From NCBI GenBank assembly GCA_004376785.1, contig SOIY01000229.1, positions 1 through 39,040 on the forward strand: DNA of 39,040 nt. The letters run 5' to 3'. A program made the position numbers and the translations under genes. The DNA is from Candidatus Stahliibacteriota bacterium (GTDB lineage: Bacteria > Hydrothermota > Tepidihabitantia > SM23-42). Of the stretch, positions 16,272 to 37,673 are shown in pieces; positions within the stretch are counted from its first letter, which is position 1; each line of letters opens with the position of its first letter. The notes under the pieces were generated by a model that did not search any database, was not told the DNA's origin, and saw only the letters and a program-made list of their open reading frames with translations.

Positions 16272-17066
16272 TTATGGCTTTAGAACAAATTTACTCATGG
16301 TTTTAGCAAATAAATTAAATGCCACACCCATACCACTTATTACCTCTATCTCTATTGGATCACCTAAGTAATCCTCGAAAGGTTTTACAGCAGTTAAAAT
16401 AAAATTTTCTCTGGTAGCAAATAATATAACTTTAACAGCTGGATAATATAATATCCTAATTGGATTACCGCTTCTGAATAAGAACAGGTTGTAAGGGGAA
16501 TCAATATTTAATAAAGCACACGCATATCCACCTTTGATATGTCCAACTGTTTCTCTTATAGATTTTATAGTCCGGTTACTGCCAAAACGCCTTGTAAAAT
16601 GCGATACTAATTGGAAAATAATTTCAGTATCTACCCGAGCGATACGTGTTATATTTTTCCTAAATTTATTAAATAATTCATCATCATTAGCGATCACACC
16701 GTTATGTACGCCTACAATATTCTCTACTACAATTGGATGATTGTTGTAATTATTTTCTGGACTTCCTTTGGTTGGCATTCTACAATGACCAATCATAGAC
16801 TTTAGATGATCACTTGAGGTCTCATCTTTTCCAACCCTCATGTGTTTATCTGCAAAATCGAGATAATCTTTATCTTTTGTAAGCATAGAGCCAGCTAAAG
16901 GTCTACGTATAACTTCTGTTGAGCGGCTTTTCATAACAGCTACACCACTAGCAGACCTCCCGTTTACCTCGGCCTCTTTAAGAAGGGTAGCCATTATAGC
17001 TTTTACTGTTGCAGTATCATCTAATGTATGCTCTTGGAAAAGACCCATACCGAAAATTGAACACAT
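16272..17066 (-). CDS. class-II (Ntn) glutamine amidotransferase-like protein
   Basis: MCSIFGM (Cys2), IGHCRMPTKGSPENNYNNHP and GVHNGVIANDDE. Stand-alone GATase_2 domain of 264 aa. Confidence 0.8.
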   Translation of the reverse strand: MCSIFGMGLFQEHTLDDTATVKAIMATLLKEAEVNGRSASGVAVMKSRSTEVIRRPLAGSMLTKDKDYLDFADKHMRVGKDETSSDHLKSMIGHCRMPTKGSPENNYNNHPIVVENIVGVHNGVIANDDELFNKFRKNITRIARVDTEIIFQLVSHFTRRFGSNRTIKSIRETVGHIKGGYACALLNIDSPYNLFLFRSGNPIRILYYPAVKVILFATRENFILTAVKPFEDYLGDPIEIEVISGMGVAFNLFAKTMSKFVLKP

Positions 17067-17077
17067 TCACAACTCCT

Positions 17078-18676
17078 TTATATTAATGACATGGAGCCGA
17101 TACGATCTAACCATACCATCTCTCCATCGTTCTTTTTAGTATTAATGAATTCAGATACTCTATCATCAATTACCTGATCATTGTCTTTATTAAGTAATAA
17201 GATAACTGCTTTAAGCCATTCGTCTTCATTTTTACACTGATCCACTAATCTTAGATCAATTATTTCAGTTAGCTTAGCAATAAATACATCTTCTGTGGTC
17301 ATCACTACCTGTAAATCTTTTTCAATAGTTTCCCAAGTATCACCATCGCATCTTCTAATACCACATGGACGTTCTGCAAGTTTTTCTAATACTTCATATG
17401 CCGGCCCAGTTTTCATCAGAATATGCTTTATTTGGGAAATTAAATCGAAGGACTCTGAGATTAGCACATCATAGTGTTTTGATAGACCGCTTGTATCACT
17501 AAATCTATCGCCAGAATTATAATCTTTCATGTTGTTCATCAAATCTCTTTTTATTCCTTCCGCTTTTTCTATCCAATCCTGACCGCCTACTTCTACAACA
17601 CCATATCTGGATATTTCTATGGCTTTAATCATCATAGCGTAGTACAAACATGATACAGCTGCTATTGCGCTCGGTGATAGTAAACAATCCATCACTCTTA
17701 GCTCTACGTGAAACCGTTTTACATCACCTTTTTTGGTAAAAGTGCAGTTGTTGTAATTTACCCAACCGTATTTATTTCCGCCCGCATTCGACGAAACGTC
17801 TGCTTTTACCTTTGACATATTATTTAACACTGCAGATATGTTAAGTACTGATACTCTGTATTTTTCCCATCTAGTTATACGCTCCGGCTCATCCAAACCA
17901 ATGGTCATCCAAGTTATGGCATTTTGATATCTCCGGCATAGTTGATGAAAATTAGCCAGTATAATTTCTGGCATAGCTTTTTCCATCTCATCTATTTGAT
18001 TAGGTACACCAGGACTGCCGCTACTACCAGCAATTTTTCCATAATAGCTAGCCAATAAATGCGCATGGATGCTAGTTCTTTCGTTAACATATGCCCCGTT
18101 CTTAACTGCCAAATCTATAATTTCTTTTGACATTTTAAAGAACTCCCAGTAGTCAGGTCTCCTACCAACTGTTATTACTTCAGCTCCTTTCTTTCCGAGC
18201 AAACTTCCGTCAGTTGTAATACTATGGACACCGTGTTTGGTAAGTGAACCATAGCTATGTGAAGGAGTTAGAAAGTTATTCATTCTTTCTCTGATATGGT
18301 CTGGATTTCTTTCTGGATCGAAAAGATTTTCACAGGACTTACAATCTACTTCAAATTTCTCGCAAATTATACATTTGCTAAGAAATCCAGTACAAAATAT
18401 TCCATGACAGATAAAATTTTTCCCTCGTTCAGCTTTACATGTGTCAAATCTGATACAGTCTTTCCAGCAATTAGATTCAGCCATGTGTTTACATGGACAA
18501 GCGTTGTTGTTTCCTTTACAGGTACCATTCTTATTTGGCAAATTAAATTCATACTCCAAGCCAATCTTTAATATCTTATGAAGCATATGTTTCCAATATC
18601 TTACATCACCTGTATTTATTGCTTCCTTAGAGGGATGAACATAAAATGTCCATTTATCTCTGTTATCTCTACTCAT
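17078..18676 (-). CDS. Amidoligase_2-type (glutamine-synthetase-like) amidoligase with Cys-rich insert
   Basis: KIGLEYEFNL (metal-binding E-x-E strand), TTDGSLLGKKGAEVITVG, SIHAHLL and RFHVELRVMD follow the GS-like amidoligase motif order. About 18 Cys lie between residues ~47 and ~125. Confidence 0.7.
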   Translation of the reverse strand: MSRDNRDKWTFYVHPSKEAINTGDVRYWKHMLHKILKIGLEYEFNLPNKNGTCKGNNNACPCKHMAESNCWKDCIRFDTCKAERGKNFICHGIFCTGFLSKCIICEKFEVDCKSCENLFDPERNPDHIRERMNNFLTPSHSYGSLTKHGVHSITTDGSLLGKKGAEVITVGRRPDYWEFFKMSKEIIDLAVKNGAYVNERTSIHAHLLASYYGKIAGSSGSPGVPNQIDEMEKAMPEIILANFHQLCRRYQNAITWMTIGLDEPERITRWEKYRVSVLNISAVLNNMSKVKADVSSNAGGNKYGWVNYNNCTFTKKGDVKRFHVELRVMDCLLSPSAIAAVSCLYYAMMIKAIEISRYGVVEVGGQDWIEKAEGIKRDLMNNMKDYNSGDRFSDTSGLSKHYDVLISESFDLISQIKHILMKTGPAYEVLEKLAERPCGIRRCDGDTWETIEKDLQVVMTTEDVFIAKLTEIIDLRLVDQCKNEDEWLKAVILLLNKDNDQVIDDRVSEFINTKKNDGEMVWLDRIGSMSLI

Positions 18677-19830
18677 ATTAAAGCTCCCATCTGTTTGTCA
18701 GTTTTATACCAGTTTACTTCCATATCTGGAGAACATTGTATCCCCGACTCCACATATTTAAAATATTCATTTATAGAATCAGCCCTTTTCTTGTATCCTA
18801 CCATCTTTTCAATACCAGATCTTATATTATCGTAGTAAGTCATTGCCAAACTAGTATCTATACTACATATGATAGAGAATATTGTCATGGCTGATGGAAT
18901 GTCTGGATATAATTCTAGCATATCTTTATCCGTTGATACATAATCTAATTTAGTAAAATTATCTGTACAATGTTTAATACGACTTACTACATCCTCTATA
19001 ACAGTTGCCCCTATACTTATTATACCGTGTGTCAGTACTGGATGCTTCATCAGTGCTGCTCCAGGTACTCTATATTCAAGAGTTCTATTATCTAGTCTAT
19101 AATTGCCTGGTTTACCGTAGGCCAAATAAGGAGTAGTCCTTCTGTAATTATCGTCCTTCCCCTCTGGAAGTATAGAAGGAACTCCTATGTAATAATCTAG
19201 TATCTTTACTATTTGGTCTGCTATCTTAATCTTTTTATAACCTAGTAATTCATTTGGGAGGCCATAATGTAAATGAAAACCGGCAGTGATTTTCTTATAG
19301 GAAGATACTGCTGTTATCATTATGTCAGGGTCATTTATTTTTTGTCTAGCTTGTTTTAACATGTTGAAGATGTGAGATACAACTACATTTTCATCGGTGC
19401 TTGGTAATGGCCTAAATTCTAACAGTAAACCATCACACCCGACAGCGTCCCATTTCTTAAAGTATTTACCTGCAGTTACTATACCAGCATCTTTCTTATC
19501 TACTAGTATTAATTCCGGATCGCAGCCGAGCGTTATATTATCTACGAGTTTTACTTCACAAACATTAGAAGGACTATTAGTTAACAATTCAAATATTTCA
19601 TTAGTAACATATGCAGAGGATGAATTATCTTCTACATCCTCTTCATAGGCCTTCTCAATAGACAAAGAAACTATACTATCATCAGTGGCTCTCATGTTTA
19701 AAAAACCGCCCAGGCGTATGTCTAATGCTTTTCTAAGATCTTTTGGAATTCTGATTACTTTTCTCTCTGTTAATCTTTCTTCACGTATCTTATCCTCCAT
19801 TAATTTAGAAGGGTTAATTATTAATTTCAT
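18673..19830 (-). CDS. phiEco32-type COOH-NH2 ligase, copy 2
   Basis: LGCDPELILVDKK, GCDGLLLEFRPLPS, AGFHLHYG and LEYRVPGAALM. 4-nt overlap with the downstream amidoligase gene. Confidence 0.75.
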   Translation of the reverse strand: MKLIINPSKLMEDKIREERLTERKVIRIPKDLRKALDIRLGGFLNMRATDDSIVSLSIEKAYEEDVEDNSSSAYVTNEIFELLTNSPSNVCEVKLVDNITLGCDPELILVDKKDAGIVTAGKYFKKWDAVGCDGLLLEFRPLPSTDENVVVSHIFNMLKQARQKINDPDIMITAVSSYKKITAGFHLHYGLPNELLGYKKIKIADQIVKILDYYIGVPSILPEGKDDNYRRTTPYLAYGKPGNYRLDNRTLEYRVPGAALMKHPVLTHGIISIGATVIEDVVSRIKHCTDNFTKLDYVSTDKDMLELYPDIPSAMTIFSIICSIDTSLAMTYYDNIRSGIEKMVGYKKRADSINEYFKYVESGIQCSPDMEVNWYKTDKQMGALI

Positions 19831-23113: not shown

Positions 23114-26100
23114 CTATACAAAACTGTTATTTCCACCGAGACATATCCCAGTGGTACGATTCTTAGATAATTCTTTTTGACCTTCTACCATTACATTGTG
23201 AGCATCATCGCTTATAGTATTAACAGTTAGCACCCTCTCAACGTAGTCCATAAGAGTTTTGCATGCGTCACGTTTATCTACGTCCTTAATAGTAGTTATT
23301 GTGTCATTATCCATAAAATCCTCAAGGACAGTCTTAGCATTATCTGATTTTCCACTCATAATAGTTTTAAGAATCTTACTTGGTGTATCTACCGCATCGG
23401 CGTCAAGATGATCGAGCAGTTGACATCCTTCTAAGTTAGCCCTGCTTGCAAAGTAAATCTTATTTTCTTTACGAACTATACGATTTATAACGTTGCTCCA
23501 GCCTTTCTCTTTAGCCTTTTGATGGTATGAATACAGATTATATATACCAACGTCTGCTGCTTTCTTCTTAATAATGTTGCATATTATAGCAGAGGTTTCG
23601 CTGGCGAATCCATGTTTGACCAGCATCTCAACATCACCGGTGCAGATTGCATCCATTACTATAGAATGCAGAGAAAGTACACCATGCTTCTGTTTAAACA
23701 CAGTATTACCTACCCGATCTAAAAATACTTCGATGGCAATGTTTACCTGTTGGTCATCTCTAACCTCAGAGTTTTCCAGTATACGCATTATATTATATGA
23801 TAACGCAATTACAGGACCGGTATGACTCTTAACACCTGTAGCTTTATCTACTAGGCCGGCGAGTGTATCAGCAGTAAGATCTCCGAACATTGTTATGTTA
23901 TAAGCGTGTAATCCAAAACAGTTAGTTTCAGGAACACCTGCTTTATTGTTTAACTGCTGAATAACCTCATAACACATCTTATTAGGTTCTTCCCACTCTT
24001 TTCGTAATAAAGCAACAGCTTCTTGTGTATGAAATGATGCCAGATAGATGACATCACCATCGAAATCTAAACCAAGAGAACATAAGTTGTTGCCACTGAC
24101 TCTGATGGTATATTTACATAAATCATCGTGTGTGACTCGTACCTTCTGAGGCCGGATAGACATAAAACCTAAGCATGGGAACCTTTCAACTAGCACTACA
24201 TCCCCATTGGTTACTCGCAAAGTTTTGGCCATATTCCTGTGTATCTCTATAGTATTTTCTGGCAGTCTGTTGGATAATGTAGCTACTGCTTTTGCAGAGA
24301 ATGGGTATCTTACTGACATTCCTAGTTGCGATATGTCACCACGTTTGGTGCCTAACATTTTAGATACCTTTGCGAAATAGGTATAGACTGAATTGTATAG
24401 CATCCGAATAGCTATAGCATTCTGAGGATCGGCCAAATATCTATGAGACATTACTAACATGTTATTAACTAGCACGCCTATCTCATTCAAGCCGAACTTA
24501 CCGTTGTCATGCTTCCAGCATTTTCTCATGCTAGATTTTGGTATATATATTTTATCAAACACACGAACTTTTTCAGATATTAATGTTCCTATTGTTATTG
24601 TTGCTGCGCCTTCGTGGATAACTTCACCATCATCATCAAGAGTCACCTGGTATGTTATAGGTAACTGCATGATAAATCCATCAGGCGCAAAGTAATCGTC
24701 CACAATAGTATTTTTGATATACTCTTCGTCCACTATAGTTCCAGCTGATTGATCCACATACTTCAGGTCTTTAGTTTGATACGTTGGAACATCTGGTGGC
24801 AACTCACCACGTTTTGATCTTAGAACTTTAAGATTTTCATGTATGTTGTCACTACCTTGAGCGTATGATAGGATCTCCGTTAGTAGAGCATTATCCTTTC
24901 CAAATCTAGTTTCTAATGCTCTCATTTCTACGTGTGATAGTTTTAAGCCAGCCCGTCTAAGTCCTTTAATATCTCTTCTGATAGTAGCATTCTCATCCCA
25001 TAGAGCGTTCTCTACACTTGCTATTACCCCCCAGAAAACTTCACCGCAGACACCTTCTAGCTTGCCCATGTATGTCTCACAAGACCATGTACCATCCCCT
25101 GGAAGATTATTCATTGTTAATATCTTACTCACATAAGACATATCTACTTGATAATCATCAGGTATTACTGTAGGTCCTTCCTTCGTGTTATTCAGAAGTG
25201 CTTCTAGTATCTGCCCGAAGTTCTTTCTTTTCTTTATTGATTTAGCAGATACAATTACATCAATCTTTCTTGTCTTGCCGGTCCTTGGATCGATAGCATA
25301 ACCAAGATCTTTCATCCTGATTACACCCTTATTGCCATGCAGATTAGTGATCTTTACGCCGTCTCTGAGATTACGTTTGTATTCTATTATTACATTGAAT
25401 ACTTCCGTAATTGTTCCACCTACGTTGGTCGCAGACTTAGTAATCTTTTTCACTTTTGCCTTATCACAATCAATATCAAATTTCTTAATGGTACCGGCGT
25501 TAGATGTAGATAGAATTTGTCCTTTTCTTATTAACTTTCCTTTGTGGACATGGAGTTTGTCGAAGCATTCGTATCTCTTCTCATATGTTATATACTTATT
25601 CCTATGTTGTAAGTCAACCATAATTTGGTCTTCAAAAACATCAGGAATATCGACAAACAAGGTAAATAGATTCCATCCTTTACGTGTAATACCTTGGTCC
25701 ATCAAATCCTGCATGGCCTGCGATCTAACTTTTGGTAATTCATCCCCCTTCATCCCTAACGTAGAATATAAATTTCGCTGGGGATTATGATAATGTATAC
25801 CGAATGGGGTTAGATGACGGATATCACGCATTAAGATATAATTCTTATTAGCTAAGCTACCATCAGCTAAACCGATTGAAGTCCATCCTCTATCAAAATA
25901 GGCTTTGTTCTTCTCAATCTGGTAAGATAAGCGTTCTTCTGGACTTTTAAGCTCATCAAATACAGGATCAACTATTACTAACCTTCTGTTCATTACCCAG
26001 CTATTAAGATAAGTCTCGTGCAGGGGCATCTTATTTATTATTTCATTAATTGCCCGTTGTAAATTGTATACAATTGTGGAAGTGTTGCCATTATTATATG

Positions 26101-26485
26101 AGTATACTAGTTGCTGTATATATGGAATTTTCTTGATCAACCCTCTAGGTATAATACCATCAGGATTATCACAAACTATTTTCTGCATAACAGCAAAGTA
26201 ACTTAAGATGAGGTCATCTTTACGAATAAAATGAGAACATACAGCTCTTCGCACTTCGTTCTGTTTGACTAAAAATACGCCATTGTCCTCATATGGTATA
26301 GGAACATTAAATGAATGCTGCTCATCATCTTTAGAAAGTATAAACCAAAGTGAATTATTAGCAATCTTTGTATCAAGTTTGATTCCGAAATCTATATTCT
26401 TTTTCTTCCCCTCAACATCAGTTCTGGCCACAAATTGTGCTATCACACTTGAACGCAGTAATTCAGTCTTTGACTCCAAATTCAT
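23114..26485 (-). CDS. single-polypeptide RNA polymerase with fused beta-like and beta-prime-like catalytic modules
   Basis: Beta-like: FEDQIMVD, NLHGNKGVI (aa 383-387, nt 25325-25339), KIDVIVSAKSIKKRKNFGQILEALL and GLKLSHVEMRALE (beta: [42 protein letters not shown]). Beta-prime-like: MSVRYPFSAKAV, VVLVERFPCLGFMSIRP, LGLDFDGDVIYL (aa 807-811, nt 24053-24067), ADTLAGLVDKATGVKSHTGPVIAL (bridge-helix-like). Confidence 0.8.
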   Translation of the reverse strand: MNLESKTELLRSSVIAQFVARTDVEGKKKNIDFGIKLDTKIANNSLWFILSKDDEQHSFNVPIPYEDNGVFLVKQNEVRRAVCSHFIRKDDLILSYFAVMQKIVCDNPDGIIPRGLIKKIPYIQQLVYSYNNGNTSTIVYNLQRAINEIINKMPLHETYLNSWVMNRRLVIVDPVFDELKSPEERLSYQIEKNKAYFDRGWTSIGLADGSLANKNYILMRDIRHLTPFGIHYHNPQRNLYSTLGMKGDELPKVRSQAMQDLMDQGITRKGWNLFTLFVDIPDVFEDQIMVDLQHRNKYITYEKRYECFDKLHVHKGKLIRKGQILSTSNAGTIKKFDIDCDKAKVKKITKSATNVGGTITEVFNVIIEYKRNLRDGVKITNLHGNKGVIRMKDLGYAIDPRTGKTRKIDVIVSAKSIKKRKNFGQILEALLNNTKEGPTVIPDDYQVDMSYVSKILTMNNLPGDGTWSCETYMGKLEGVCGEVFWGVIASVENALWDENATIRRDIKGLRRAGLKLSHVEMRALETRFGKDNALLTEILSYAQGSDNIHENLKVLRSKRGELPPDVPTYQTKDLKYVDQSAGTIVDEEYIKNTIVDDYFAPDGFIMQLPITYQVTLDDDGEVIHEGAATITIGTLISEKVRVFDKIYIPKSSMRKCWKHDNGKFGLNEIGVLVNNMLVMSHRYLADPQNAIAIRMLYNSVYTYFAKVSKMLGTKRGDISQLGMSVRYPFSAKAVATLSNRLPENTIEIHRNMAKTLRVTNGDVVLVERFPCLGFMSIRPQKVRVTHDDLCKYTIRVSGNNLCSLGLDFDGDVIYLASFHTQEAVALLRKEWEEPNKMCYEVIQQLNNKAGVPETNCFGLHAYNITMFGDLTADTLAGLVDKATGVKSHTGPVIALSYNIMRILENSEVRDDQQVNIAIEVFLDRVGNTVFKQKHGVLSLHSIVMDAICTGDVEMLVKHGFASETSAIICNIIKKKAADVGIYNLYSYHQKAKEKGWSNVINRIVRKENKIYFASRANLEGCQLLDHLDADAVDTPSKILKTIMSGKSDNAKTVLEDFMDNDTITTIKDVDKRDACKTLMDYVERVLTVNTISDDAHNVMVEGQKELSKNRTTGICLGGNNSFV

Positions 26486-28472: not shown

Positions 28473-28982
28473 TTAATCTTCTCCTAATTTATCTAATTTT
28501 TCTGCAATATCAGCTATACTTTTGCACGTTTCTATTGTGTCATCTGTCTCAATGTCATCCTCGTCAACCGACATCACTATACTTAATTCATAACCATATA
28601 GTATAAACATTTGATCAATATCATAAAGAAAGTTTGCTGATTCGTTACCTTTCAACAGAGACCTTACCTCATAGGCTAATTCTTTGTAGTCATCGTCTGA
28701 CTCAGAATCAAGTATAACTCCATGTGAATGATTCTCTTGATCCATAACTACTATAAATGCCTGTTGATTCCTAAGATCTCTTGGTATTGATTTGGCTGAC
28801 GTTAATACTCCATGTATTACTCTTAAGTCTGAACAAATACTTATATTTTTAGTCCTTAGATGACTAAGAAGCTGTTCATACGAGGAACACACAACCAACT
28901 CACCAGATGGAGTGACAGCAGTATCAACCCCTACTATGTACACTTCCTCATAGAGCATATTAAATAATGCTGATTTATCCAT
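28473..28982 (-). CDS. acidic hypothetical protein (169 aa)
   Basis: D/E-rich (DSESDDDYKE, VDEDDIETDDTIE). 8-nt overlap with the upstream gene. Confidence 0.55.
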   Translation of the reverse strand: MDKSALFNMLYEEVYIVGVDTAVTPSGELVVCSSYEQLLSHLRTKNISICSDLRVIHGVLTSAKSIPRDLRNQQAFIVVMDQENHSHGVILDSESDDDYKELAYEVRSLLKGNESANFLYDIDQMFILYGYELSIVMSVDEDDIETDDTIETCKSIADIAEKLDKLGED

Positions 28983-29688
28983 TTATTTCCTTAATGTTTA
29001 TGCTATCTGCAGAAACATATTTGGTTTTGAACTCTTTCATGTTCATTTTAAGAAAATTATTCAGTAATGTTTTGTAATAAATGTAAGCTTTGGCACTACT
29101 AACCATAAATTCAGGGTGCCATTGCACCCCAAACACTTTATACCATGGTATAAGAATAGCTTCTACTTCTGGCCCATGCCAATTTATTTCTTCATCTTTA
29201 TTACCTATGTATTTGCTAGATTGCTTTTCAAGACTCCAAGCTAGGATGTGTCCATCTGCTGGAGGTATACACATTTGATGATGAAGACTGTTAGTCATAA
29301 ATGAGTCAAACGTTTTACAAGAAGTATTTACTATATGCTGATTTGATACATGCCCATCCATATGGTGTATTAATTTACCGCCACACATCACATTTAGAAA
29401 TTGCATGCCCCGACAGATACCAGCCATAGGTATATTAGATTTCATAGCTACATTAAATATCTTTTTGTCCAACTCATCGCGTTTTTTACTCACCGTGCAA
29501 TAATTTTTTGGACTAGTATCACCGTAGAGTTCAGGTGATACATCTTCTCCGCCAGTAAATTGTACCAGTTTAAAATCTTTAGGATTTAACACAAAAGCAG
29601 TATAGTCGAGAGTTACTTCACCGAAATCTCTCAGCATAGGTGCATATGAGTTATTATCTGGGTTAAGAACTAGTATCCTATCTTTCAT
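28975..29688 (-). CDS. class-I glutamine amidotransferase-like / peptidase C26 (gamma-glutamyl hydrolase, PuuD-like), copy 1
   Basis: Nucleophile elbow PMAGICRGMQFLNV and GVQWHPEF (His-Glu of the triad). Confidence 0.85.
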   Translation of the reverse strand: MKDRILVLNPDNNSYAPMLRDFGEVTLDYTAFVLNPKDFKLVQFTGGEDVSPELYGDTSPKNYCTVSKKRDELDKKIFNVAMKSNIPMAGICRGMQFLNVMCGGKLIHHMDGHVSNQHIVNTSCKTFDSFMTNSLHHQMCIPPADGHILAWSLEKQSSKYIGNKDEEINWHGPEVEAILIPWYKVFGVQWHPEFMVSSAKAYIYYKTLLNNFLKMNMKEFKTKYVSADSINIKEING

Positions 29689-29691
29689 ACA

Positions 29692-29991
29692 TTATTCCTC
29701 TAAATCAGGTGTTTTGATTTCTTGTGGTTTTGCAAGCTCGTAAGCAATATCTACGACATCAGCAACCTTAATGAACCGTTGCACAGGTGACTCGTCAAAG
29801 CTTATACAAAATACAGGTTCTGTCATTCTCTTACCAGCAAGAGAGCCAGTCTCTCTATAATCTATTTTTGATACAGCGGGACTATCCTCTACTACTGTAC
29901 CATCTTCAAGCGTTGGTTGTTGATCAACAGTAAACTTAACTGGTAAACTTAAGTTATAACCTTTTCTCCAAATTTCTATAATTCCTGCCAT
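29692..29991 (-). CDS. hypothetical protein (99 aa)
   Basis: ORF with a GAGGAG SD, preceded by a 166-nt structured leader. Confidence 0.55.
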   Translation of the reverse strand: MAGIIEIWRKGYNLSLPVKFTVDQQPTLEDGTVVEDSPAVSKIDYRETGSLAGKRMTEPVFCISFDESPVQRFIKVADVVDIAYELAKPQEIKTPDLEE

Positions 29992-30157
29992 TTTTAATCT
30001 CCTCTTTTTTTATTTTACAGGACCGCACAGAACGGTCACAGAGAAACCCTCGAATCTTATGTTTCACTATTACTTTGCTACGCAAAGTCATATGTATGGA
30101 TTTTTGGTAAAAATCCAACACTATATTTATTGGACGATAGACAAAACTAATCAACGT

Positions 30158-30565
30158 TCACATGCCTGGTTCCCACAATCCATCATCGATTTTCATAGAA
30201 GTCTTAGGCTCTCGCGAATATTCATAGACATACACTTCCATCTTTTCACCATCTTTTGTTTTTGCCGTGACCACCCTACGGTTATACAAATTGTTTTTTT
30301 CTTCACTTTTTGGGTTATAACCTTCAATCATATCCATAGTACGGATTATTTCTTTTATGTCATCCTTGTGAAATTTATGAACTTCACCTTGGACGAGCCC
30401 TTTACCTTTCAGCTTTATTGTAGGATAAGGTCCTAAATTATACAGCGATCCAACAATCGTAGCAGGTGTTACAGATAGACGAGTATCAGCAAATACTTTT
30501 CTATCCAAGGGTCTTCCTTCTTTAAGCGTTCCATACACAAACACATTTAATACTTTCTTACTCAT
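30158..30565 (-). CDS. gamma-glutamylcyclotransferase (GGCT/AIG2-like)
   Basis: VFVYGTLKEGRP (YGTL-x-x-G signature), GPYPTIKL..GLVQGEV and MDMIEGY (catalytic Glu context). Confidence 0.85.
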   Translation of the reverse strand: MSKKVLNVFVYGTLKEGRPLDRKVFADTRLSVTPATIVGSLYNLGPYPTIKLKGKGLVQGEVHKFHKDDIKEIIRTMDMIEGYNPKSEEKNNLYNRRVVTAKTKDGEKMEVYVYEYSREPKTSMKIDDGLWEPGM

Positions 30566-31961
30566 TAGAACCTCCTTTTTTAACTACAATTTTTTTCTCT
30601 GTTACTTCTTCATCTAGACTCCATCTAGCCTGATCATATATTTTTACATCACTAATTACTCCTTTTATTTCTTTCCCCGGTTTAATTGATTCATTAGGTG
30701 GTGCAGCGTCCATCTTGAGTCTAATTCCACGAAATCTGTCAGAAGACAAACTTTTGATTGATAAATCTTGTCCTGAATTGCCTATATCAATTATAGGTGG
30801 AGAATCTTGGCCAAGAGTATGACGATTAACAAGAACAGCACTTTCATTAAGTGGATTTATAGTAGACTCAGCAGGTGTAGTTACAGCAAAACTAGACGCT
30901 TTCTCATAATCATCATGGTGTCTGAATTTCTTTTTCTTTTTAACAGAGGATCTTAATTTAAGTTTAAATACAATTTTCTCACACAGAGCTGCCGCAGAAC
31001 GGCTGCCGAGATACCTACCTTTTATTTTTCTGGCTCTATCTTCAGTGTAGACCATAGGGTCAGCACTTATTTTTTTGAGATAGATACCAAAGTCTTTTCT
31101 AGCCGTCGAAATAATCAGGCTATGTAACTCATCAGGTGTTAGTTTCTTAAGCATTGATGGAAAAAATCTGAGATTTACATTACCATCCTGACCAAGCATT
31201 ATTTTAGTATATATCTTACTACTTTGTTGTTTTACTTTATTACTTTTCCTTTGTTTCAGGTAATTTTGATTGGCCTGGTCTATTGATATGCCTAAACTCC
31301 ATCCTCGCTTTGTGTATTTTCTAAATCTTTCAGTAAGTTTTGAGTGGTAGTTAGCAACACGTATTATTCTATTTTTACAATCATCTAACGCTGATTTGAT
31401 AACTTCAAATATCTTGCCATGTCTATCGATAGCAACACCACAAAATATAAAATCAACTGCACGTACTATACTTAATGCATCACTCAATGGGTCATCTGTT
31501 TTTTCCATAGCCTGTATGATTTGAACATGTTTGTTGCCGACAGTTTCAAATGCTACTACGTCAGAAACGTTTCTGTAAGATTTTTTAGATTTATCCAGAG
31601 AAGATTTTTTAAATTGGGGTGGGGGAACGTGGTAACCAACCGCGCGAGGAGGATGCCACTTGCCTCTATTAGGCGATTTTGATCTAAATTCTTTACGGCT
31701 AAAATCAGTCTCACTTATTGTATTTCCTGCAATCTGTTTCCATTTTGAGGAGTTGGCAAATCTTTTGCACAGCTTCATAAATTCGAAATGTGATACTGCT
31801 ATATCCAAATCACCATTAGCAGGTAATCCTGAGATAATAGAAGTTATAGAGCTACCATATACTACTGCGTTATCAGTTAACATGGTGCTTATATTATCAA
31901 ATCGTTCATCAATAATTTCAACGATAAACGGTTGCTCTATTGTTTTAAGATATTGTTCCAT
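30558..31961 (-). CDS. pol-beta-superfamily nucleotidyltransferase-like protein
   Basis: VVYGSSITSIISGLPANGDLDIAVS fits the hG[GS]-x(9-13)-D-h-D/E-h minimal NTase motif. The rest is unrecognised, with a basic K-rich central part. 8-nt overlap with the GGCT gene. Confidence 0.5.
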   Translation of the reverse strand: MEQYLKTIEQPFIVEIIDERFDNISTMLTDNAVVYGSSITSIISGLPANGDLDIAVSHFEFMKLCKRFANSSKWKQIAGNTISETDFSRKEFRSKSPNRGKWHPPRAVGYHVPPPQFKKSSLDKSKKSYRNVSDVVAFETVGNKHVQIIQAMEKTDDPLSDALSIVRAVDFIFCGVAIDRHGKIFEVIKSALDDCKNRIIRVANYHSKLTERFRKYTKRGWSLGISIDQANQNYLKQRKSNKVKQQSSKIYTKIMLGQDGNVNLRFFPSMLKKLTPDELHSLIISTARKDFGIYLKKISADPMVYTEDRARKIKGRYLGSRSAAALCEKIVFKLKLRSSVKKKKKFRHHDDYEKASSFAVTTPAESTINPLNESAVLVNRHTLGQDSPPIIDIGNSGQDLSIKSLSSDRFRGIRLKMDAAPPNESIKPGKEIKGVISDVKIYDQARWSLDEEVTEKKIVVKKGGSNE

Positions 31962-32208
31962 TACCCTTCCTTGTATCAGTTACTGATAATCCCATAAGTG
32001 TATACCCCTGAGCTTTATAGACTTCCTCGAATGTAATGAATCCATACTCAAGTACCCAAGTACTTATGGGTGAAATTCCATTATCTATTATCTTTTCCCT
32101 TAACCTTTTTACTATATCCCTAGCTTCTGTTAAGTTGAAACTTTTATAGATAAGACATTCTGCGTCGTCATCACACAGTCTGAATTCTATCGTCCATCTT
32201 TTTGTCAT
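31945..32208 (-). CDS. hypothetical protein
   Basis: Start placed at the ATG at 32208 (MTKRWTIEF...), which forms TAATG with the stop of 32208..32957. The longest ORF (to 32268) would overlap that gene by 61 nt. Confidence 0.5.
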   Translation of the reverse strand: MTKRWTIEFRLCDDDAECLIYKSFNLTEARDIVKRLREKIIDNGISPISTWVLEYGFITFEEVYKAQGYTLMGLSVTDTRKGNGTIS

Positions 32209-32957
32209 TATTCTTTGCCGAAGTGATTTATAAGTAAATTGTGATCCTTTAGTTCTTCCGGATGCCATTGTACGCCAGCTATCTTACTTTTGCCCCAATT
32301 TCTAAAGATGATACCTTCTCCAACAACTCCCACTTCGTCAGCGCCAAGACCACGTGTTGCCCAAGCCGTCAACTGTAAGGTAGGTGTAACCATTGATGTC
32401 TTTTCTAACTCTTTTTCATCTTTGTGAACATGCAGATACTGATGATGCATACTATTTACCGGCATAAAATCTACTGTTTTCTTTTTGGCGCCGCCGTATA
32501 ATAAATCCGTCCTGGCTTTGACGTAGTGAGACGGAATAGTTCTTGATAAACCAAGTTCAGAGGTTGCCGCATGACTACTTATGTGTTGCTGATATTGTAA
32601 GTCTGTACCTGTTTTTGGATTCTTAAGAATGTACTCTCTTACCATCAATTGAAAGCCTCTGCAGATACCAAAGATAGGTCGTTCAGCTTTGAAGAAAGCC
32701 CAGAACAATTCTCTTTCAAATGCATCTTTTTCAGGATCAGTAGCATGGGAGCCCCAATTATTATCACCATAAAAGATTGGGTCAATGTCTTTACCACCAG
32801 GTAGAAGTAGACCGAATTTGCCTTGAGCCAACTCCTTTGTTTTGTTTTGCGGTACCGCTATTAATGGTACGTGTCCAGCATCGGCTATATAATCAATATA
32901 GGCTTTGTTGATTTGATATGTAGACTTTTCAGGCCCTGCAGGTATAACAATAACCAT
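32208..32957 (-). CDS. class-I glutamine amidotransferase-like / peptidase C26, copy 2
   Basis: PIFGICRGFQLMV and GVQWHPEEL. LLPGGKDIDP is typical of the family. Confidence 0.85.
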   Translation of the reverse strand: MVIVIPAGPEKSTYQINKAYIDYIADAGHVPLIAVPQNKTKELAQGKFGLLLPGGKDIDPIFYGDNNWGSHATDPEKDAFERELFWAFFKAERPIFGICRGFQLMVREYILKNPKTGTDLQYQQHISSHAATSELGLSRTIPSHYVKARTDLLYGGAKKKTVDFMPVNSMHHQYLHVHKDEKELEKTSMVTPTLQLTAWATRGLGADEVGVVGEGIIFRNWGKSKIAGVQWHPEELKDHNLLINHFGKE

Positions 32958-32958
32958 T

Positions 32959-33867
32959 TTATAACCCCCATTCTTCTTTTACAGTTTTATATTTTTTTAT
33001 ATTATCTTTACATAGTTCAAACAAATCTTTTGAGTCTTCACTAAGATGTTGTTCTACGTGCTGCTTTATGATCTCAGTTGCCTTTATAATCCTTCCATTA
33101 TTTATAACATCTTGTAGTATGTACTCTGTTATTGAGTCTAAAATCCCCCTCAATTTACCAGAGCTAACCAAAGTTAATGCATCTTTTGTCAATGAATCCA
33201 TCAACATTACTAGCTCGGGAGATTTCATCCAATAGTTGCTTAATACTCTGTACTCAACGCCATAATCAGTAGGTCTATGACAACCGGCTTTCCCATAAAG
33301 CTCTTTCCGTTTGGTTGCTGCTAAAGAGTCATCCAATACTGTGGAAATTATACCATGGAGTAAATCCATCGCTTTAACAGTATCTATCTTTCCTTTAAAC
33401 TCCATTAAAAATTCTAAGCCCACAATCGGTGTCTTCTTGTCATCAAGACAACCAACGTGGATGTGGGCTCCACAACTTCTGAATGTAGAATCCTCACACC
33501 ATGGCTTTTCGTTTTCTTCCAATAGATATGCACTAAAATCAGGATCACAGCCAAATTCGCAAGCTTCTGGATCGGTCAACTCACTTTCTTCAAAAGTAGC
33601 TGAAGGTTCCACTACTAACTCGTGCCCATCAGGAATTATATCAAGAGTATCTTTTAAACAATCCTTTACCTTATCTACAAAATCTTTACCGCTTTTTGCT
33701 GGTACAGTAGCAAACTCGACAGCTACATTATCTCTCTGTACTGTTCCACCAGATGGAAGCATTGCAGGTTCATGTTTCGATCCTTTTATGAAGGGAATGG
33801 CTGATACGTATTTGCTTCCCTTTTTTAAGAAGAATTCAGGATCTGTTCCAATAGTATGTCTCTTCAT
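32959..33867 (-). CDS. phiEco32-type COOH-NH2 ligase, copy 3 (shortest)
   Basis: IGTDPEFFLKKGSKYVS, DNVAVEFATVPA, CGAHIHVG and GVEYRVLSNYWM, in the same motif order as the other two copies. Confidence 0.75.
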   Translation of the reverse strand: MKRHTIGTDPEFFLKKGSKYVSAIPFIKGSKHEPAMLPSGGTVQRDNVAVEFATVPAKSGKDFVDKVKDCLKDTLDIIPDGHELVVEPSATFEESELTDPEACEFGCDPDFSAYLLEENEKPWCEDSTFRSCGAHIHVGCLDDKKTPIVGLEFLMEFKGKIDTVKAMDLLHGIISTVLDDSLAATKRKELYGKAGCHRPTDYGVEYRVLSNYWMKSPELVMLMDSLTKDALTLVSSGKLRGILDSITEYILQDVINNGRIIKATEIIKQHVEQHLSEDSKDLFELCKDNIKKYKTVKEEWGL

Positions 33868-33873: not shown

Positions 33874-34602
33874 TTATGTTATTCCTCCTAATATCTTTTT
33901 AAATTTGTCCTTAAGTTTTTCATCTGCTATAGTATTTGAACATAGTGCTACTACACCCGAGCGACTATGAAAATTTCCAATTAGTGTATCTCCAAACAGA
34001 ATCTTATCTTTTTGCTTAAACATCAACAGATTCCTGTTTTCCAAGGTAGCATGTATGTATTTATACACACCTTTTAAATATCTGATATCGTTAATGTTGT
34101 TAACTTTCGTATCATTAATCAACTTCTCGTAGGCTTTTGTTAATTCTTTCTCATTTTTAAATTCTATTTTCCTGCATCCTAATCTTATTAACAATGTATA
34201 TAAAGAAATCAATACTGAAGATTGTGTCCATTCTCCCGGCCCAAGAAATATGTACATGTCATCTACTTTAGTTATTTTAGATCTTGGTGTAAGTCCAGCA
34301 ACTTTTTCATAATGATTAACAAGTTGCAATGAATATTTTATTACTTCATCAAGGTTAACACCTTTTATCAACAACCTTGTCTTCTTCAAATCTATTTTTG
34401 GATCTTCTTTAGGAAGATAACAGAAACCATAAATTTTATCTTCTTTTCCAGTCAATTGATTTCTAACGGCATCTTGGAGGAAGTCTCTACATTTAATCCA
34501 AGTATGACACATTTCACTTTTAACTGATAAAAAAGCAAAGTACATACCTGTAGGTTGGTATTCCTCACTTAGAGATTTAGTAGGGTAAAGTTTTACTTTC
34601 AT
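33874..34602 (-). CDS. hypothetical protein, paralog B1
   Basis: YIFLGPGEWTQSSVLISLYTLLIRLG and C-terminal LKDKFKKIL parallel YYFEGSKKWVKSPNILSLFMLLIRVS and LRKKFAKVL in 36858..37673. Confidence 0.6.
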   Translation of the reverse strand: MKVKLYPTKSLSEEYQPTGMYFAFLSVKSEMCHTWIKCRDFLQDAVRNQLTGKEDKIYGFCYLPKEDPKIDLKKTRLLIKGVNLDEVIKYSLQLVNHYEKVAGLTPRSKITKVDDMYIFLGPGEWTQSSVLISLYTLLIRLGCRKIEFKNEKELTKAYEKLINDTKVNNINDIRYLKGVYKYIHATLENRNLLMFKQKDKILFGDTLIGNFHSRSGVVALCSNTIADEKLKDKFKKILGGIT

Positions 34603-35767
34603 AAGTGTAATCTGCTTTCAAATATCTATTAATAGCTTCAAACTCCTTTTCGTATTTCCCTTTGGTAATGTTTATCAATCTGTGAGGAGATAGTTTCTTA
34701 ATCCCCTCTCTAAATGTTTTTATTTGTTTATTTTTATACATAAATAACAAATGGCTCAGTGGATACGGAGGAACTGCTCTTGCAAACTCCGCTGGTTCAT
34801 TCATAAGATGCTGAATCGACGTCCATATTACCGTTAAGTCCTGCCAAACTTTCTCCATTGTTTTATCAAATAAAAGTAGAAAGTCGGCATATTTTGGGAA
34901 CGCTTTTGAAACTACCACTAGATCTACATTATCTTTACATGATAAAAATATTTTAGCTATGTGGATAGGCTCTATACGATCTTCGACCTCACCAGCAGCT
35001 TTAATACTATAATATAAAGAATCTGATAGTTTAATTCTTATTCCATTCTTGCTTAATATAACACCTCTGGTTGGTATTCTATTACAAGACATAAATGTTG
35101 ATAAAGATCTCCTACCAACGATTTCTCTATGTCTTGGTCTATCAAAACCTAGGCACTCTGAAATATCATCTACTACAAACGGGTCAAGTTCTTTACCTGT
35201 TTCTTTATCGATTATTGTCAATAAATATAACTTAAGTGCTGAACTTGGCCATACAGTTTTGTATTCTTTAGAAATAAAGTCAAATACGTAGATATAATTT
35301 TTATTTTCGTTAAATGCTGAGGTCCAGCATTTGTCAGGACTTCTACCAATAGTCTTTTTTACATCAATAGTATAGTCAACATCGTTAATACTATCTTTAG
35401 CAGCTACAGACCAGACACCCATATAGTGAAATATAATAATCATCATACCAGCCGTCATCTCTTCTATGTTACTTCTATATAGCTTGAAACCTTCCGGTAA
35501 ATTTTCAATCCCTCTTGCATTATAATGGTGATCCAGTCCTTTAGATAACAGAGTGTAGCTTTCGTCCAAGATAAGGCCATTTGCTTCTCGCACTAATGGA
35601 TTGTTTATATCAGAATGCTTACCTTTGTTATAAATATATACCTTAGATTTCTTCGAGTAATTATGCAAATAGTCATCTGTAATACTTAGAGATAATTTTT
35701 CTTTAAGGTAGACATTTGCTTCCTCAATAGAATTAAAGCACGATATAAACTCTTGAATTTTAAGCAT
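34577..35767 (-). CDS. T4 Rnl1-like RNA ligase-fold protein; motif I lysine not evident
   Basis: Compared with T4 Rnl1 recalled from memory: EANGLILDE ~ ECRGIMFEM; VFDFIS ~ NFEFVA (motif III); KLYLLTIIDKETGKEL ~ KIILLNVRENETGEYI; TRGVILSKNGIRIKLSDSLY ~ [21 protein letters not shown] (motifs IV/V). At the KEDG position the sequence reads EEMTAG. Confidence 0.5.
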   Translation of the reverse strand: MLKIQEFISCFNSIEEANVYLKEKLSLSITDDYLHNYSKKSKVYIYNKGKHSDINNPLVREANGLILDESYTLLSKGLDHHYNARGIENLPEGFKLYRSNIEEMTAGMMIIIFHYMGVWSVAAKDSINDVDYTIDVKKTIGRSPDKCWTSAFNENKNYIYVFDFISKEYKTVWPSSALKLYLLTIIDKETGKELDPFVVDDISECLGFDRPRHREIVGRRSLSTFMSCNRIPTRGVILSKNGIRIKLSDSLYYSIKAAGEVEDRIEPIHIAKIFLSCKDNVDLVVVSKAFPKYADFLLLFDKTMEKVWQDLTVIWTSIQHLMNEPAEFARAVPPYPLSHLLFMYKNKQIKTFREGIKKLSPHRLINITKGKYEKEFEAINRYLKADYTYESKTLPY

Positions 35768-35837: not shown

Positions 35838-36845
35838 TTATCGTAAAGGTGTAGTGTTTTTCAGCAGATTAGTAGGAATTATAACTGGAACCCCTATTTG
35901 CATTTGCTTAGGTATAATATTTGGATTTGCTTCTGATATTTTTCGCCAGTTATTTACATTACCAGTATACCAATTGGCAAGTAGACCAAGGGTCTCCCCC
36001 TTTTTTACGATATGGGTAAACAGTATATTACTTTTTACTTTGGCAGGAATTTTTGCCTCAATTGTCTCGTTATCGACCTTTGTCTCGTTACCAACCTTTA
36101 TTTTAGTATCAGCTATATCTTTCTTATCTTCTTCTTCCTCTTCTGATACTTTTATATCGCTGAATGATTTGAATACGATGAACTTGCCCATTGATTCATA
36201 CACCTGCTTGATATAGGGATGGCTGCCGCCAACATATTTAAATAATGCTTTACGCATATCGTTATCGGTAGCATCAAGATACCTTCTTAAAATTCTAACT
36301 CCACTATCTATACCTATTTCTATATCATGCAAATCATATTTACTTGAAAGCCCAAGCTCTTTCACCCAAATCCTAGGCATTACTTGCATTGCCCCTCTTG
36401 CCCCTTTTGGGCTAATAGCAAACGGATTAAAGTGAGACTCAACTTCTGTAACTGCAATTACTGCTACGAAAGGCACATTATGAATAGTGCTTTTCTCGAT
36501 AATACGAATAGCCATTTCTTCAGCTATAAGCGGAGCGACCGTTTTATAGTATGTCAATATATAGTTCTTTATATTATCTTTTTCTTGCATCTTTTTTGCT
36601 CTTAATCTTCTAACCATTTTTTGAAGTTGTGAACGTTCTTCTGTTAAGAGCTTTATTGACTCTGTTTGTTCCTTAACCACGTTGGATATTTGTTTGATGT
36701 TATTCCTTAAGTCAGCCTTAGTTTTTTCTTTTGACATTGCACCACATATTAAGGCCGTAACGATAACCATTATTACTAACAAACCTAAAATATATTTTCC
36801 ATTATCAGAAAACCATTTACAAAATTTATCAATTACCTTTTTCAT
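35838..36845 (-). CDS. membrane-anchored lytic transglycosylase (SLT domain) with C-terminal LysM
   Basis: N-terminal TM segment ILGLLVIMVIVTALICGAM. SLT motifs VTEVESHFNPFAISPKGARGAMQVMP. Acidic linker. LysM HIVKKGETLGLLANWYTGNVNNWRKISEANP...IGVPVIIP. Confidence 0.85.
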   Translation of the reverse strand: MKKVIDKFCKWFSDNGKYILGLLVIMVIVTALICGAMSKEKTKADLRNNIKQISNVVKEQTESIKLLTEERSQLQKMVRRLRAKKMQEKDNIKNYILTYYKTVAPLIAEEMAIRIIEKSTIHNVPFVAVIAVTEVESHFNPFAISPKGARGAMQVMPRIWVKELGLSSKYDLHDIEIGIDSGVRILRRYLDATDNDMRKALFKYVGGSHPYIKQVYESMGKFIVFKSFSDIKVSEEEEEDKKDIADTKIKVGNETKVDNETIEAKIPAKVKSNILFTHIVKKGETLGLLANWYTGNVNNWRKISEANPNIIPKQMQIGVPVIIPTNLLKNTTPLR

Positions 36846-36857: not shown

Positions 36858-37673
36858 TTATACTTCCCAAGATTTTAATATTTCGTTTTCTTTTAAAACT
36901 TTAGCGAACTTTTTACGTAAATCTAGATCTTTAACGAAAAGATCACATAAAGTATTTATTCCTTCATTAAACAGAGATGACTTGGTATCTGGTAGATACA
37001 GATCTCGCATAGATATTTTACCAAATAGTCTGTCGTAATATTTTAGTGCCAACAACCAACGTTTGTAATGTGTTTTCAAATAACTTACGTACATAGTATT
37101 ATTATTATTACATAAGCTTTTGTGAAACCCATCAAGTGTTCCAAACTCTGTATGTTTTTTCAAAGATGAACTAACTCTAATCAATAACATAAACAAAGAA
37201 AGTATGTTAGGACTTTTTACCCATTTTTTGCTGCCTTCAAAGTAATAAAATATATGATTTTCATTTAATTGTTTACATTCCGGCAAGTAAATCTTTGTTA
37301 ATGGCCATTTGAATTCTTTTTCGATTATATTTATTATTTTGAGACTGACCGCCATTTCTTTATCGTATTCTACTTTACGATGTTCAACAAGGCTTCTTTG
37401 CCTTTTAGTTAACTTACGACTGTCGCTAAATCCAATTAATTTATTGTATGATAGTAATCTAAGTTTTTTTACATCAAACTTTTCTTTATGGGTAAAATTA
37501 TTTCTCAGATGGTCACAAACTATCTCTCTACACGACTCCGGTAAAAGGTTTAGTTTTATTTTATTTTCCTTTATTGGGTCGTATACAAGAGAAAATATAT
37601 TCTTGCTCATATACAGATTGTTTCTTAGACAAGACATTTGCTCTTTGCCTAAAATTAATTGCAAATTATTCAT
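36858..37673 (-). CDS. hypothetical protein, paralog B2
   Basis: 271 aa. Similar to 33874..34602 (see that entry). Confidence 0.6.
   Translation of the reverse strand: MNNLQLILGKEQMSCLRNNLYMSKNIFSLVYDPIKENKIKLNLLPESCREIVCDHLRNNFTHKEKFDVKKLRLLSYNKLIGFSDSRKLTKRQRSLVEHRKVEYDKEMAVSLKIINIIEKEFKWPLTKIYLPECKQLNENHIFYYFEGSKKWVKSPNILSLFMLLIRVSSSLKKHTEFGTLDGFHKSLCNNNNTMYVSYLKTHYKRWLLALKYYDRLFGKISMRDLYLPDTKSSLFNEGINTLCDLFVKDLDLRKKFAKVLKENEILKSWEV

Follow-up and report, generated by a model that had tools for sequence, protein, structure and literature searches.

The amidoligase cassette of phiEco32-type phages was first reported by Iyer et al. (2009; cited in PMC10580990). In phiEco32 it consists of gp86 (the ligase LigC), gp84 (Amidoligase_2), gp83 (a class-II glutamine amidotransferase, GAT-II), gp80 (a RimK-like ATP-grasp ligase) and gp77 (a gamma-glutamyl cyclotransferase, GGCT). 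In most carriers the cassette forms one co-directional cluster in the early or replication region, with the usual order (GGACT) - C26 - LigC - hypothetical - Amidoligase_2 - GAT-II - RimK-like ATP-grasp - (242-aa protein). Here, a module at positions 28975-33867 of contig SOIY01000229.1 is compared with this cassette. The window, i.e. the whole stretch of 39,040 nucleotides (nt) that was analyzed, is a 39-kb phage contig of ~35% GC with all genes on the minus strand, and the module encodes LigC, two hydrolases of the C26 family (C26a and C26b), a gamma-glutamyl(amine) cyclotransferase (GGACT) and a nucleotidyltransferase (NTase). The region is the hydrolase-rich LigC/C26/GGACT half of the phiEco32-type phage amidoligase cassette and no new kind of system. 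What is new is that the cassette has been split and amplified and has gained a CCA-enzyme-like NTase, in a lineage without a deposited relative.

Organization of the LigC/C26/GGACT module

The module spans 4.9 kb and is transcribed in the order LigC, C26b, an open reading frame (ORF) of 87 amino acids (aa), NTase, GGACT, a conserved spacer of 166 nt, a 99-aa ORF and C26a. C26b and the 87-aa ORF overlap by 1 nt (a TAATG stop/start), the 87-aa ORF and NTase by 17 nt, NTase and GGACT by 8 nt, and C26a and the next ORF by 8 nt; judged by these stop/start overlaps, neighboring genes of the module are predicted to be translationally coupled. The preliminary description of this DNA had placed two C26 proteins, a GGCT, a protein with a pol-beta-type NTase motif and a phiEco32-type ligase within 5 kb, several of them with overlapping stop and start codons. 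All of these family calls were right and the overlaps are those given above. It was silent on the 87-aa ORF, the 99-aa ORF and a cassette-associated 242-aa protein encoded next to LigC.

The gene order is kept in the related metagenomic contigs L014, L015, L016, L017 and L091 and, in part, in L096 and L097, at protein identities of 39-67%. In L014-L017 and L091 it reads LigC, C26b, small ORF, NTase, GGACT (if the contig reaches that far), small ORF and C26a, followed by four unknown genes and then a large RNA polymerase gene. L093 and L094 lack NTase and have GGACT 10 kb upstream, with LigC, C26b, two small ORFs and C26a still in place. With its order repeated in at least seven related contigs, the grouping of these genes is not due to chance. 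A megablast search of the region against 50,697 phage records gave no match, PADLOC returned 0 matches to known anti-phage defense systems for 10 proteins, and promoter and terminator scans showed no excess over shuffled controls.

Some neighboring genes of the module deserve mention. A lytic transglycosylase encoded at 35838-36845 (minus strand) has an SLT domain, a hydrophobic segment at the N-terminus and, at the C-terminus, a weak LysM-like match below the Pfam cut-off; across the lineage, its gene keeps a position three genes upstream of LigC, in an apparent early operon rather than a lysis module. L091 encodes a YcaO-domain protein (1792-3156), a member of an amide-backbone-modifying family, ~8 kb upstream of the module.

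The amidoligase cassette across phages

A scan of IMG/VR with a LigC alignment returned at least 534 loci. The counts given here refer to the 90 of these that are most similar to the LigC of the window, with neighbors taken within +/-10 kb of LigC. C26 accompanies LigC in 84 loci, the ATP-grasp ligase in 76, GAT-II in 74, Amidoligase_2 (confirmed by PF12224) in 71 and GGACT in 28, and with rare exceptions these families lie on LigC's strand. Median offsets from LigC are -2.8 kb for GGACT, -1 kb for C26, +0.7 kb for the hypothetical gene, +1.6 kb for Amidoligase_2, +2.5 kb for GAT-II, ~+2.8 kb for ATP-grasp and +4.2 kb for the 242-aa family, after which primase, helicase and DNA polymerase genes follow. 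Contiguous C26, GAT-II, LigC and ATP-grasp genes are present in Alcaligenes phage QDWS535, an oyster-metagenome Zobellviridae phage and the uncultured crAss-like cr108_1, and an amidoligase gene is annotated in the cassettes of QDWS535 and the Zobellviridae phage. The LUZ24-like phage UFV-P2 has a phiEco32-like layout, with GGCT directly after ATP-grasp.

With the cassette of phiEco32, LUZ24 and PaP3 the window shares the PF14395 ligase, the RimK-like ATP-grasp ligase, GAT-II, GGCT and, as in many members, C26 (PHROGs 3815, 7218, 2520 and 2599), together with the co-directional arrangement in the early/replication region. The window differs in its division into two blocks ~9 kb apart and in its duplicated families, with three PF14395 ligases instead of one and two copies each of C26, GAT-II and ATP-grasp. 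Further differences are an Amidoligase_2 that is at best very divergent and the additional GNAT-fold protein, CCA-like NTase and two small ORFs.

A split cassette

In the window, the LigC/C26/GGACT half is separated by RNA polymerase and helicase genes from a partner half that carries ATP-grasp, GAT-II and two further PF14395 ligases, LigA and LigB. The lineage of the window has neither an ATP-grasp nor a GAT-II gene within 10 kb of LigC. Co-occurrence of the two halves was tested on contigs anchored on the intervening helicase. Both relatives with long enough flanks, L096 and L097 (helicase identity 68% and 59%), carry GGACT, the 99-aa ORF and C26a on one side of the helicase and LigB, an unknown gene, GAT-II, an unknown gene, a large GAT-II, LigA, ATP-grasp and GNAT on the other, which is the order of the window; a third contig ends at the helicase. 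A pattern-method search for related loci with LigA and LigB gave no relatives. The preliminary description had treated 28975-33867 as a second module with a third ligase and had proposed to check whether it co-occurs with the block at 10592-19830. Both blocks do co-occur, in the same order in L096 and L097, and are better regarded as a single cassette, split and amplified, than as two modules. LigC is the most conserved anchor of the known cassette, of which the window carries a split copy.

For Amidoligase_2 (PF12224), no Pfam match was obtained in the window. A 532-aa protein encoded between LigB and GAT-II and conserved in the lineage has only the motifs TDGSL..G.E and ERTSIHAH in common with Amidoligase_2, at an hhalign probability of 31%, and is a candidate for a very divergent Amidoligase_2 of the cassette. 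The 605-aa GAT-II matches PDB entries through its N-terminal Ntn domain only, and its C-terminal half has no assignment. The coordinates of the cassette genes and associated features are compiled in Table 1.

Table 1. Cassette genes and associated features of the window, listed from the LigC half to the partner half.
Feature	Length	Coordinates	Strand	Supporting matches and remarks
LigC, carboxylate-amine (COOH-NH2) ligase, phiEco32 type	302 aa	32959-33867	-	PF14395, phrog_3815, hhalign
C26b, PuuD-like class-I amidotransferase-fold hydrolase	249 aa	32208-32957	-	PF07722 E 2.2e-25
Conserved small ORF	87 aa from TAATG-coupled start	31945-32208	-	homologues at same position in L014, L016, L017
NTase, predicted pol-beta fold, CCA-adding-enzyme-like head + neck	467 aa	30558-31961	-	motif, AlphaFold, Foldseek
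GGACT/AIG2-type gamma-glutamyl(amine) cyclotransferase	135 aa	30158-30565	-	PF06094 E 6.9e-21, phrog_2520
Conserved intergenic element upstream of 99-aa ORF		29992-30157	-	TTTCTCTnTGACCG, then hairpin, then ribosome-binding site
Conserved 99-aa ORF	99 aa	29692-29991	-	homologues at same position in L014, L015, L017; 99-aa gene called there in L096
C26a, PuuD-like hydrolase	237 aa	28975-29688	-	PF07722 E 4.8e-22, phrog_7218 E 2e-39
Protein of cassette-travelling family	242 aa	33874-34602	-	family in 27-32/90 loci
Paralogue of 242-aa protein		36858-37673	-	
LigB, PF14395 ligase in partner half		18673-19830	-	PF14395 E 7.6e-22, 78.2 bits
Possibly divergent Amidoligase_2	532 aa	17078-18676	-	motif-level match
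Class-II (Ntn) glutamine amidotransferase domain protein	264 aa	16272-17066	-	GATase_6, GATase_7; weak EgtC, GlmS matches
Class-II glutamine amidotransferase (GAT-II)	605 aa	13473-15290	-	N-terminal Ntn domain
LigA, PF14395 ligase		12203-13519	-	PF14395 E 1.2e-25, 90.6 bits
RimK-family ATP-grasp ligase		11020-12132	-	RimK PF08443, TIGR00768, phrog_2599
GNAT-fold protein, end of partner block		10592-11020	-	Acetyltransf_1 E 1.2e-7; same position in L096, L097
Second, shorter ATP-grasp	289 aa	1569-2438	-	~9 kb from first; groups with cassette ATP-grasp family

The RNA polymerase gene that stands between the two halves encodes a single polypeptide of 1123 aa (23114-26485, minus strand) with weak Pfam matches to Rpb2_6 (residues 324-434) and Rpb1_2 (residues 747-825), which suggests a fused minimal multisubunit-type RNA polymerase (beta + beta-prime). 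This gene is kept next to the module in L015, L017, L091, L093 and L096, and tblastn of the protein against the 50,697 phage records gave no match. Directly downstream of the amidoligase block, the window encodes a sigma-70 region-2-like protein (8086-8898) and a RuvB-like AAA+ ATPase (8905-9894), both on the minus strand.

LigC and its paralogues

The match of LigC to Pfam PF14395 is marginal (26.7 bits; cut-off 25). However, LigC matches phrog_3815 ("COOH.NH2 ligase") at E 2e-57 and is homologous by hhalign to LigA and LigB, the strong PF14395 ligases of the window, with probabilities of 98-98.7%. The family comprises 4,622 cluster representatives (50% identity) at E<=1e-3. Among the invariant residues of LigC are D9-P10-E11, E51, H135, H137, R187, E205 and R207. 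Searches against PDB, performed with the single sequence and with a profile, returned nothing significant for LigC.

The C-terminus of LigC (32959-32980) ends in EEWG[LI] in the window, L015 and L017, and close variants are found in L004 and L016. In L002, LigC has an internal EDWGL, and an EEWG[LI]-type end is absent from most LigCs of compact cassettes. Such an end is similar to the EDWGE tail that RimK-family ligases recognize on LysW, an amino-group carrier protein.

C26 hydrolases and GGACT

Both C26 proteins retain the catalytic motifs of their family, namely GICRGMQ and VQWHPE in C26a (triad C92/H191/E193) and GICRGFQ and VQWHPE in C26b (triad C99/H232/E234). Of 92 phage homologues of C26, at least 91 keep the Cys/His/Glu triad, and at least 90 keep it along with an HHQ motif. 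PF07722 scores are 79.2 bits for C26a and 90.2 bits for C26b (cut-off 20.5), and C26a is the paralogue closest to the single C26 gene of compact cassettes. By sequence, the nearest solved relatives of both proteins in PDB are Lin1909, PuuD and SpuA, and the nearest functionally characterized ones are PuuD and SpuA. At 38.5 and 38.9 bits, the two proteins stay well under the NCBIfam equivalog cut-off for PuuD (266), and the best NCBIfam match of C26a is gamma-glutamyl-CDP-amidate hydrolase (47 bits; cut-off 250). On these scores they are classed as C26 family members and not as PuuD orthologues.

An alternative function for such proteins is that of glutaminase subunits which, instead of acting as erasers, would hydrolyze free glutamine and pass ammonia to LigC for carboxylate amidation, similar to GatD/MurT. 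C26 hydrolases and class-I amidotransferases share fold and triad, PF00117 also matches both C26 proteins, and C26 and LigC are immediate or near neighbors on the same strand in most loci, as the median offset indicates. Yet, PF00117 scores below PF07722 for both proteins, and a profile built from 12 phage C26 sequences and run against PDB yields 102 bits for Lin1909, 69 bits for SpuA and 61.5 bits for PuuD, in comparison to 43 bits for GuaA, 40 bits for CarA and 26 bits for HisH. The profile thereby favors Lin1909/SpuA/PuuD by 18-60 bits over synthase-coupled glutaminases, and GatD, the glutaminase partner of MurT, was not detected with it at E<=1e-3. In addition, the cassette already holds one or two GAT-II proteins that are available for ammonia delivery. 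A glutaminase role is therefore considered very unlikely, and the evidence favors the C26 proteins as putative stand-alone gamma-glutamyl-amide hydrolases over ammonia-donating subunits.

GGACT scores 75.5 bits against PF06094 (cut-off 22.8). Within its YGTLKEG motif, Y11, G12 and L14 are kept, together with E61, in 28-31 of 31 homologues; E61 is taken to be the catalytic Glu. In phage records, tblastn of GGACT found 11 distant records only, a search too insensitive for counting. The two C26 proteins and GGACT had been described as gamma-glutamyl-cleaving enzymes. This is reasonable since the phage C26 profile ranks Lin1909, SpuA and PuuD far over glutaminase subunits, and the family assignments, the intact catalytic residues and the placement on the PuuD/SpuA side all stand, with the restriction that the scores lie far below the PuuD equivalog cut-off.

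The hydrolases could also be encoded by independent auxiliary metabolic genes that have no functional link to the ligases and serve to break down gamma-glutamyl pools of the host (glutathione and gamma-glutamyl-polyamines) or to redirect nitrogen. Glutathione can be a substrate of GGCT-family enzymes, and PuuD and SpuA belong to polyamine catabolism. Moreover, an auxiliary role in nitrogen or amino-acid metabolism has been assigned to such genes in some phage genome papers (PMC10945688). The strong same-strand linkage to the ligases across many phage groups speaks against this explanation. The AIG2/GGACT type also differs from the ChaC type that is usually tied to glutathione, and C26 enzymes are not known to cleave glutathione. 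Auxiliary metabolism of this kind appears highly improbable, and the dismantling of host glutathione, which had been put forward as one option, is the weakest because the hydrolases are tightly linked to the ligases.

A putative pathway with gamma-glutamyl intermediates

Several characterized pathways use glutamate transiently. In the PuuA/PuuD system, gamma-glutamylation protects an amine. During butirosin synthesis, the ATP-grasp enzyme BtrJ adds a gamma-glutamyl protecting group that is removed by the cyclotransferase BtrG, and in ergothioneine synthesis, EgtA (a GCS-type ligase) adds glutamate while EgtC (GAT-II fold) removes it. Characterized RimK-family enzymes ligate glutamate as well. 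Since all enzyme families of the cassette have characterized members that form or remove glutamyl amide bonds and pathways with transient glutamate are known, a gamma-glutamyl trimming pathway is favored here, and the chances that the cassette constitutes a biosynthetic or modification pathway whose gamma-glutamyl intermediates are later trimmed are judged to be about even.

Such a pathway would form amide bonds non-ribosomally and would be driven by ATP. First, the glutamine-synthetase/GCS-type ligases and the RimK-type ATP-grasp ligase would couple an amine or a carboxylate to glutamyl or aminoacyl units. Next, the Ntn amidotransferases would either amidate the intermediate or take the glutamyl group off. 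Finally, the two PuuD-like C26 hydrolases and GGACT would remove gamma-glutamyl groups as glutamate or 5-oxoproline. The glutamyl group would thus act as a transient handle or protecting group, as it does in the Puu, butirosin and ergothioneine pathways. It had been suggested earlier that the phage carries both writing and erasing enzymes for gamma-glutamyl-type linkages; the family calls, the linkage of the genes and the placement of C26 are in line with this, and the gamma-glutamyl nature of the bonds is presumed.

The resemblance to each of the known pathways is partial. With the Puu/Pau polyamine pathway, the window shares the pairing of a glutamine-synthetase-superfamily ligase with a C26 hydrolase (PuuA with PuuD/SpuA), but it has no PuuB/PuuC-type oxidase or dehydrogenase, its ligase is of the PF14395 type in contrast to the GlnA-like PuuA, and its C26 scores are far below the PuuD equivalog cut-off. 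The butirosin pathway likewise combines an ATP-grasp enzyme (BtrJ) with a GGCT-fold enzyme that removes a gamma-glutamyl protecting group (BtrG), whereas in the window neither a carrier protein (BtrI) nor a decarboxylase nor an acyltransferase could be identified. From the ergothioneine pathway, the window has the combination of a GCS-type ligase and a GAT-II-fold protein, which there add and remove glutamate. Both GAT-II proteins of the window match EgtC weakly (16-21 bits; cut-off 219), and homologues of EgtB, EgtD and EgtE are missing from the window.

Several points weigh against a trimming pathway. Glutamate as the substrate of the window's ligases is inferred. The searched literature contains no functional study of any cassette member, and their function is called unexplored (PMC10580990). 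The C26 scores lie far under the equivalog cut-offs of both PuuD and gamma-glutamyl-CDP-amidate hydrolase. In deposited phage genomes, tblastn matches LigC in 316 records and C26a in 65. Furthermore, C26 is missing from phiEco32 and not annotated in UFV-P2, and GGACT is found in only ~30-40% of loci; the trimming enzymes are therefore accessory and not obligatory. The 93% linkage of C26 to LigC is overstated for the whole family because the 90 loci were those most similar to the LigC of the window.

Two other explanations were considered. In the first, reversible tagging of macromolecules, the ligases would mark the stem peptides of peptidoglycan, or a protein of the host or the phage, with glutamyl or peptide tags, for instance as a means to prevent superinfection. 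C26 and GGACT would then be the erasers or recyclers, comparable to PafA/Dop in pupylation. The same superfamily of ligases includes PafA and Dop, and GGACT has gamma-Glu-epsilon-Lys as its model substrate. The SLT+LysM transglycosylase three genes upstream of LigC in this lineage and the conserved GG[ST]NE end of the NTase tail, whose last residue is Glu, are also consistent with tagging, and the 2009 prediction for the phiEco32 genes was cell-wall modification or superinfection exclusion (Iyer et al., 2009, according to PMC10580990). However, the linkage to SLT is lineage-specific, and in most phages the cassette stands beside primase, helicase and DNA polymerase, not beside lysis or cell-wall genes. 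In addition, no small, conserved protein of the tag type whose C-terminal Glu is invariant was detected. The 99-aa ORF ends in E, A or D, depending on the relative. Macromolecule tagging thus seems unlikely.

Hypermodification of nucleic acids, in which the amide ligases would act on a base of phage DNA or RNA that bears a carboxyl or amino group and the hydrolases would mature the adduct, is suggested by the location of the cassette within the replication module and by the CCA-like NTase, Rnl1-like RNA ligase and CCA-adding enzyme that this lineage adds. Amidoligase and amidotransferase genes have been noted beside thymidine-hypermodification genes (PMC8989533), and the ATP-dependent amide ligase CmoY acts on 5-carboxymethylcytosine in DNA (PMC12783734). 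CmoY, however, is an AsnB-type ligase and belongs to another family than the ligases of the window. Among the ORFs of the 39-kb window, as distinct from the whole genome, no dUMP/dCMP hydroxymethylase, 5-hmU kinase, aGPT-Pplase, CmoA/CmoX or methyltransferase was detected. This explanation is regarded as distinctly unlikely.

The lineage-specific nucleotidyltransferase

NTase has no match in Pfam, PHROG or NCBIfam and none by tblastn in the 50,697 phage records, and only 27 relatives were found among 5.8 billion proteins. Identity across the relatives that share the gene order of the module is 39-65%. The 27 relatives conserve G36-S37...G50-D51-L-D53 plus an invariant D170, in agreement with the pol-beta NTase pattern hG[GS]x9-13DhD and its third carboxylate. 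An AlphaFold model generated from the alignment of the relatives is confident for residues 1-341, and residues 342-467 are predicted to be disordered. All significant PDB matches of this model in Foldseek are class II CCA-adding enzymes, poly(A) polymerase or TENT5, with E 6e-5 and probability 1.0 but a TM of only ~0.3 for the best of them. The model therefore assigns a pol-beta NTase fold to the protein, while its lack of an RRD motif, of EDxxR at the expected position and of a Pfam match to PolyA_pol (PF01743) places it outside the CCA-enzyme family. It shows no sequence similarity to the window's own CCA enzyme.

NTase is present in 6 of the 90 LigC-anchored loci. Its absence from L093 and L094, where LigC, C26b and C26a remain, indicates that it is dispensable for the module, and NTase is a lineage-specific, optional insertion. 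Of the earlier inclusion of NTase in the module, the pol-beta motif and fold are upheld, and a role as core partner is not. A conserved link between NTase and the cassette was considered and dropped, as phi32_73, the annotated nucleotidyltransferase of phiEco32, has no detectable similarity to either NTase or the CCA enzyme of the window.

The C-terminal 125 aa of NTase (30558-30935) form a variable tail with a conserved KKKKKF...DDY patch. Members of the nearest clade share a GG[ST]NE end with terminal Glu, which resembles the GGE/GGQ ends of Pup-like proteins and is not kept in more distant homologues.

Taken together with the RNA genes, NTase raises a further, quite improbable variant in which the intermediate of the cassette could be attached to a nucleotide or to RNA, either as a glutamyl/aminoacyl-nucleotide or as a modified 3' end of an RNA, and would lose its glutamyl part to a C26 hydrolase. 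This idea derives from the coupling of NTase between C26b and GGACT, from the Rnl1-like RNA ligase beside it and from the CCA-adding enzyme elsewhere. Its model is the processing of CDP-glutamine in the O-methyl phosphoramidate pathway of Campylobacter, which shares the pairing of a nucleotidyltransferase (Cj1416) with a C26 hydrolase (Cj1417). Cj1416 has a fold other than the pol-beta type. The window further differs in the low score of C26a against gamma-glutamyl-CDP-amidate hydrolase, reported above, and in having no glutamine kinase. If true, the variant would mean that the phage makes a peptidyl- or amido-nucleotide, or modifies RNA ends, by this pathway.

The RNA genes of the window comprise a CCA-adding enzyme with an HD domain (6041-7429) and the Rnl1-like RNA ligase (34577-35767); no tRNA gene is present in the window. 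A TROVE/Ro60 protein is encoded in the relative L093 (3377-4999). The CCA enzyme, RNA ligase and TROVE/Ro60 protein look like an RNA-repair toolkit interleaved with the amidoligase genes.

Small ORFs, intergenic element and the 242-aa family

Neither the 87-aa nor the 99-aa ORF has a family match. The 99-aa ORF was evaluated as a LysW/Pup-like carrier and rejected, given the varying C-terminal residue (E/A/D) between relatives. Upstream of it, the intergenic element TTTCTCTnTGACCG(n)GTGCGG (~30000-30050) lies ~35 nt ahead of the ribosome-binding site; it is common to 5 aligned relatives and unique in the window. RNAalifold weakly pairs the UCUCU of this element with the Shine-Dalgarno sequence (-2.9 kcal/mol), without covariation, and the element may act in translational control or as a phage promoter.

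The family of the 242-aa protein (~250 aa) is typically encoded just past the ATP-grasp gene of the cassette in other phages, and its invariant residues include C38, D44, E99, W125 and R140. The AlphaFold model of the window's member (pLDDT 95.6, pTM 0.93) has no fold match in PDB, and a single-sequence search of PDB gave nothing significant; its sole match in BFVD is an uncharacterized phage protein.

Implications for the amidoligase cassette

The hydrolase-rich version of the cassette sharpens a testable idea, namely that the pathway runs through gamma-glutamyl intermediates which are trimmed later. The window also adds candidate components, i.e. the 242-aa family without a solved fold relative and the two small ORFs. 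The cassette occurs in many cultured phages, among them Kuravirus and the PaP3/LUZ24-type phages of Pseudomonas, and those with a compact cassette are better places to answer the question of its function. The product, if identified, would explain a widespread early phage function, which may be metabolite synthesis, tagging of the cell wall or of proteins, or nucleic-acid modification.

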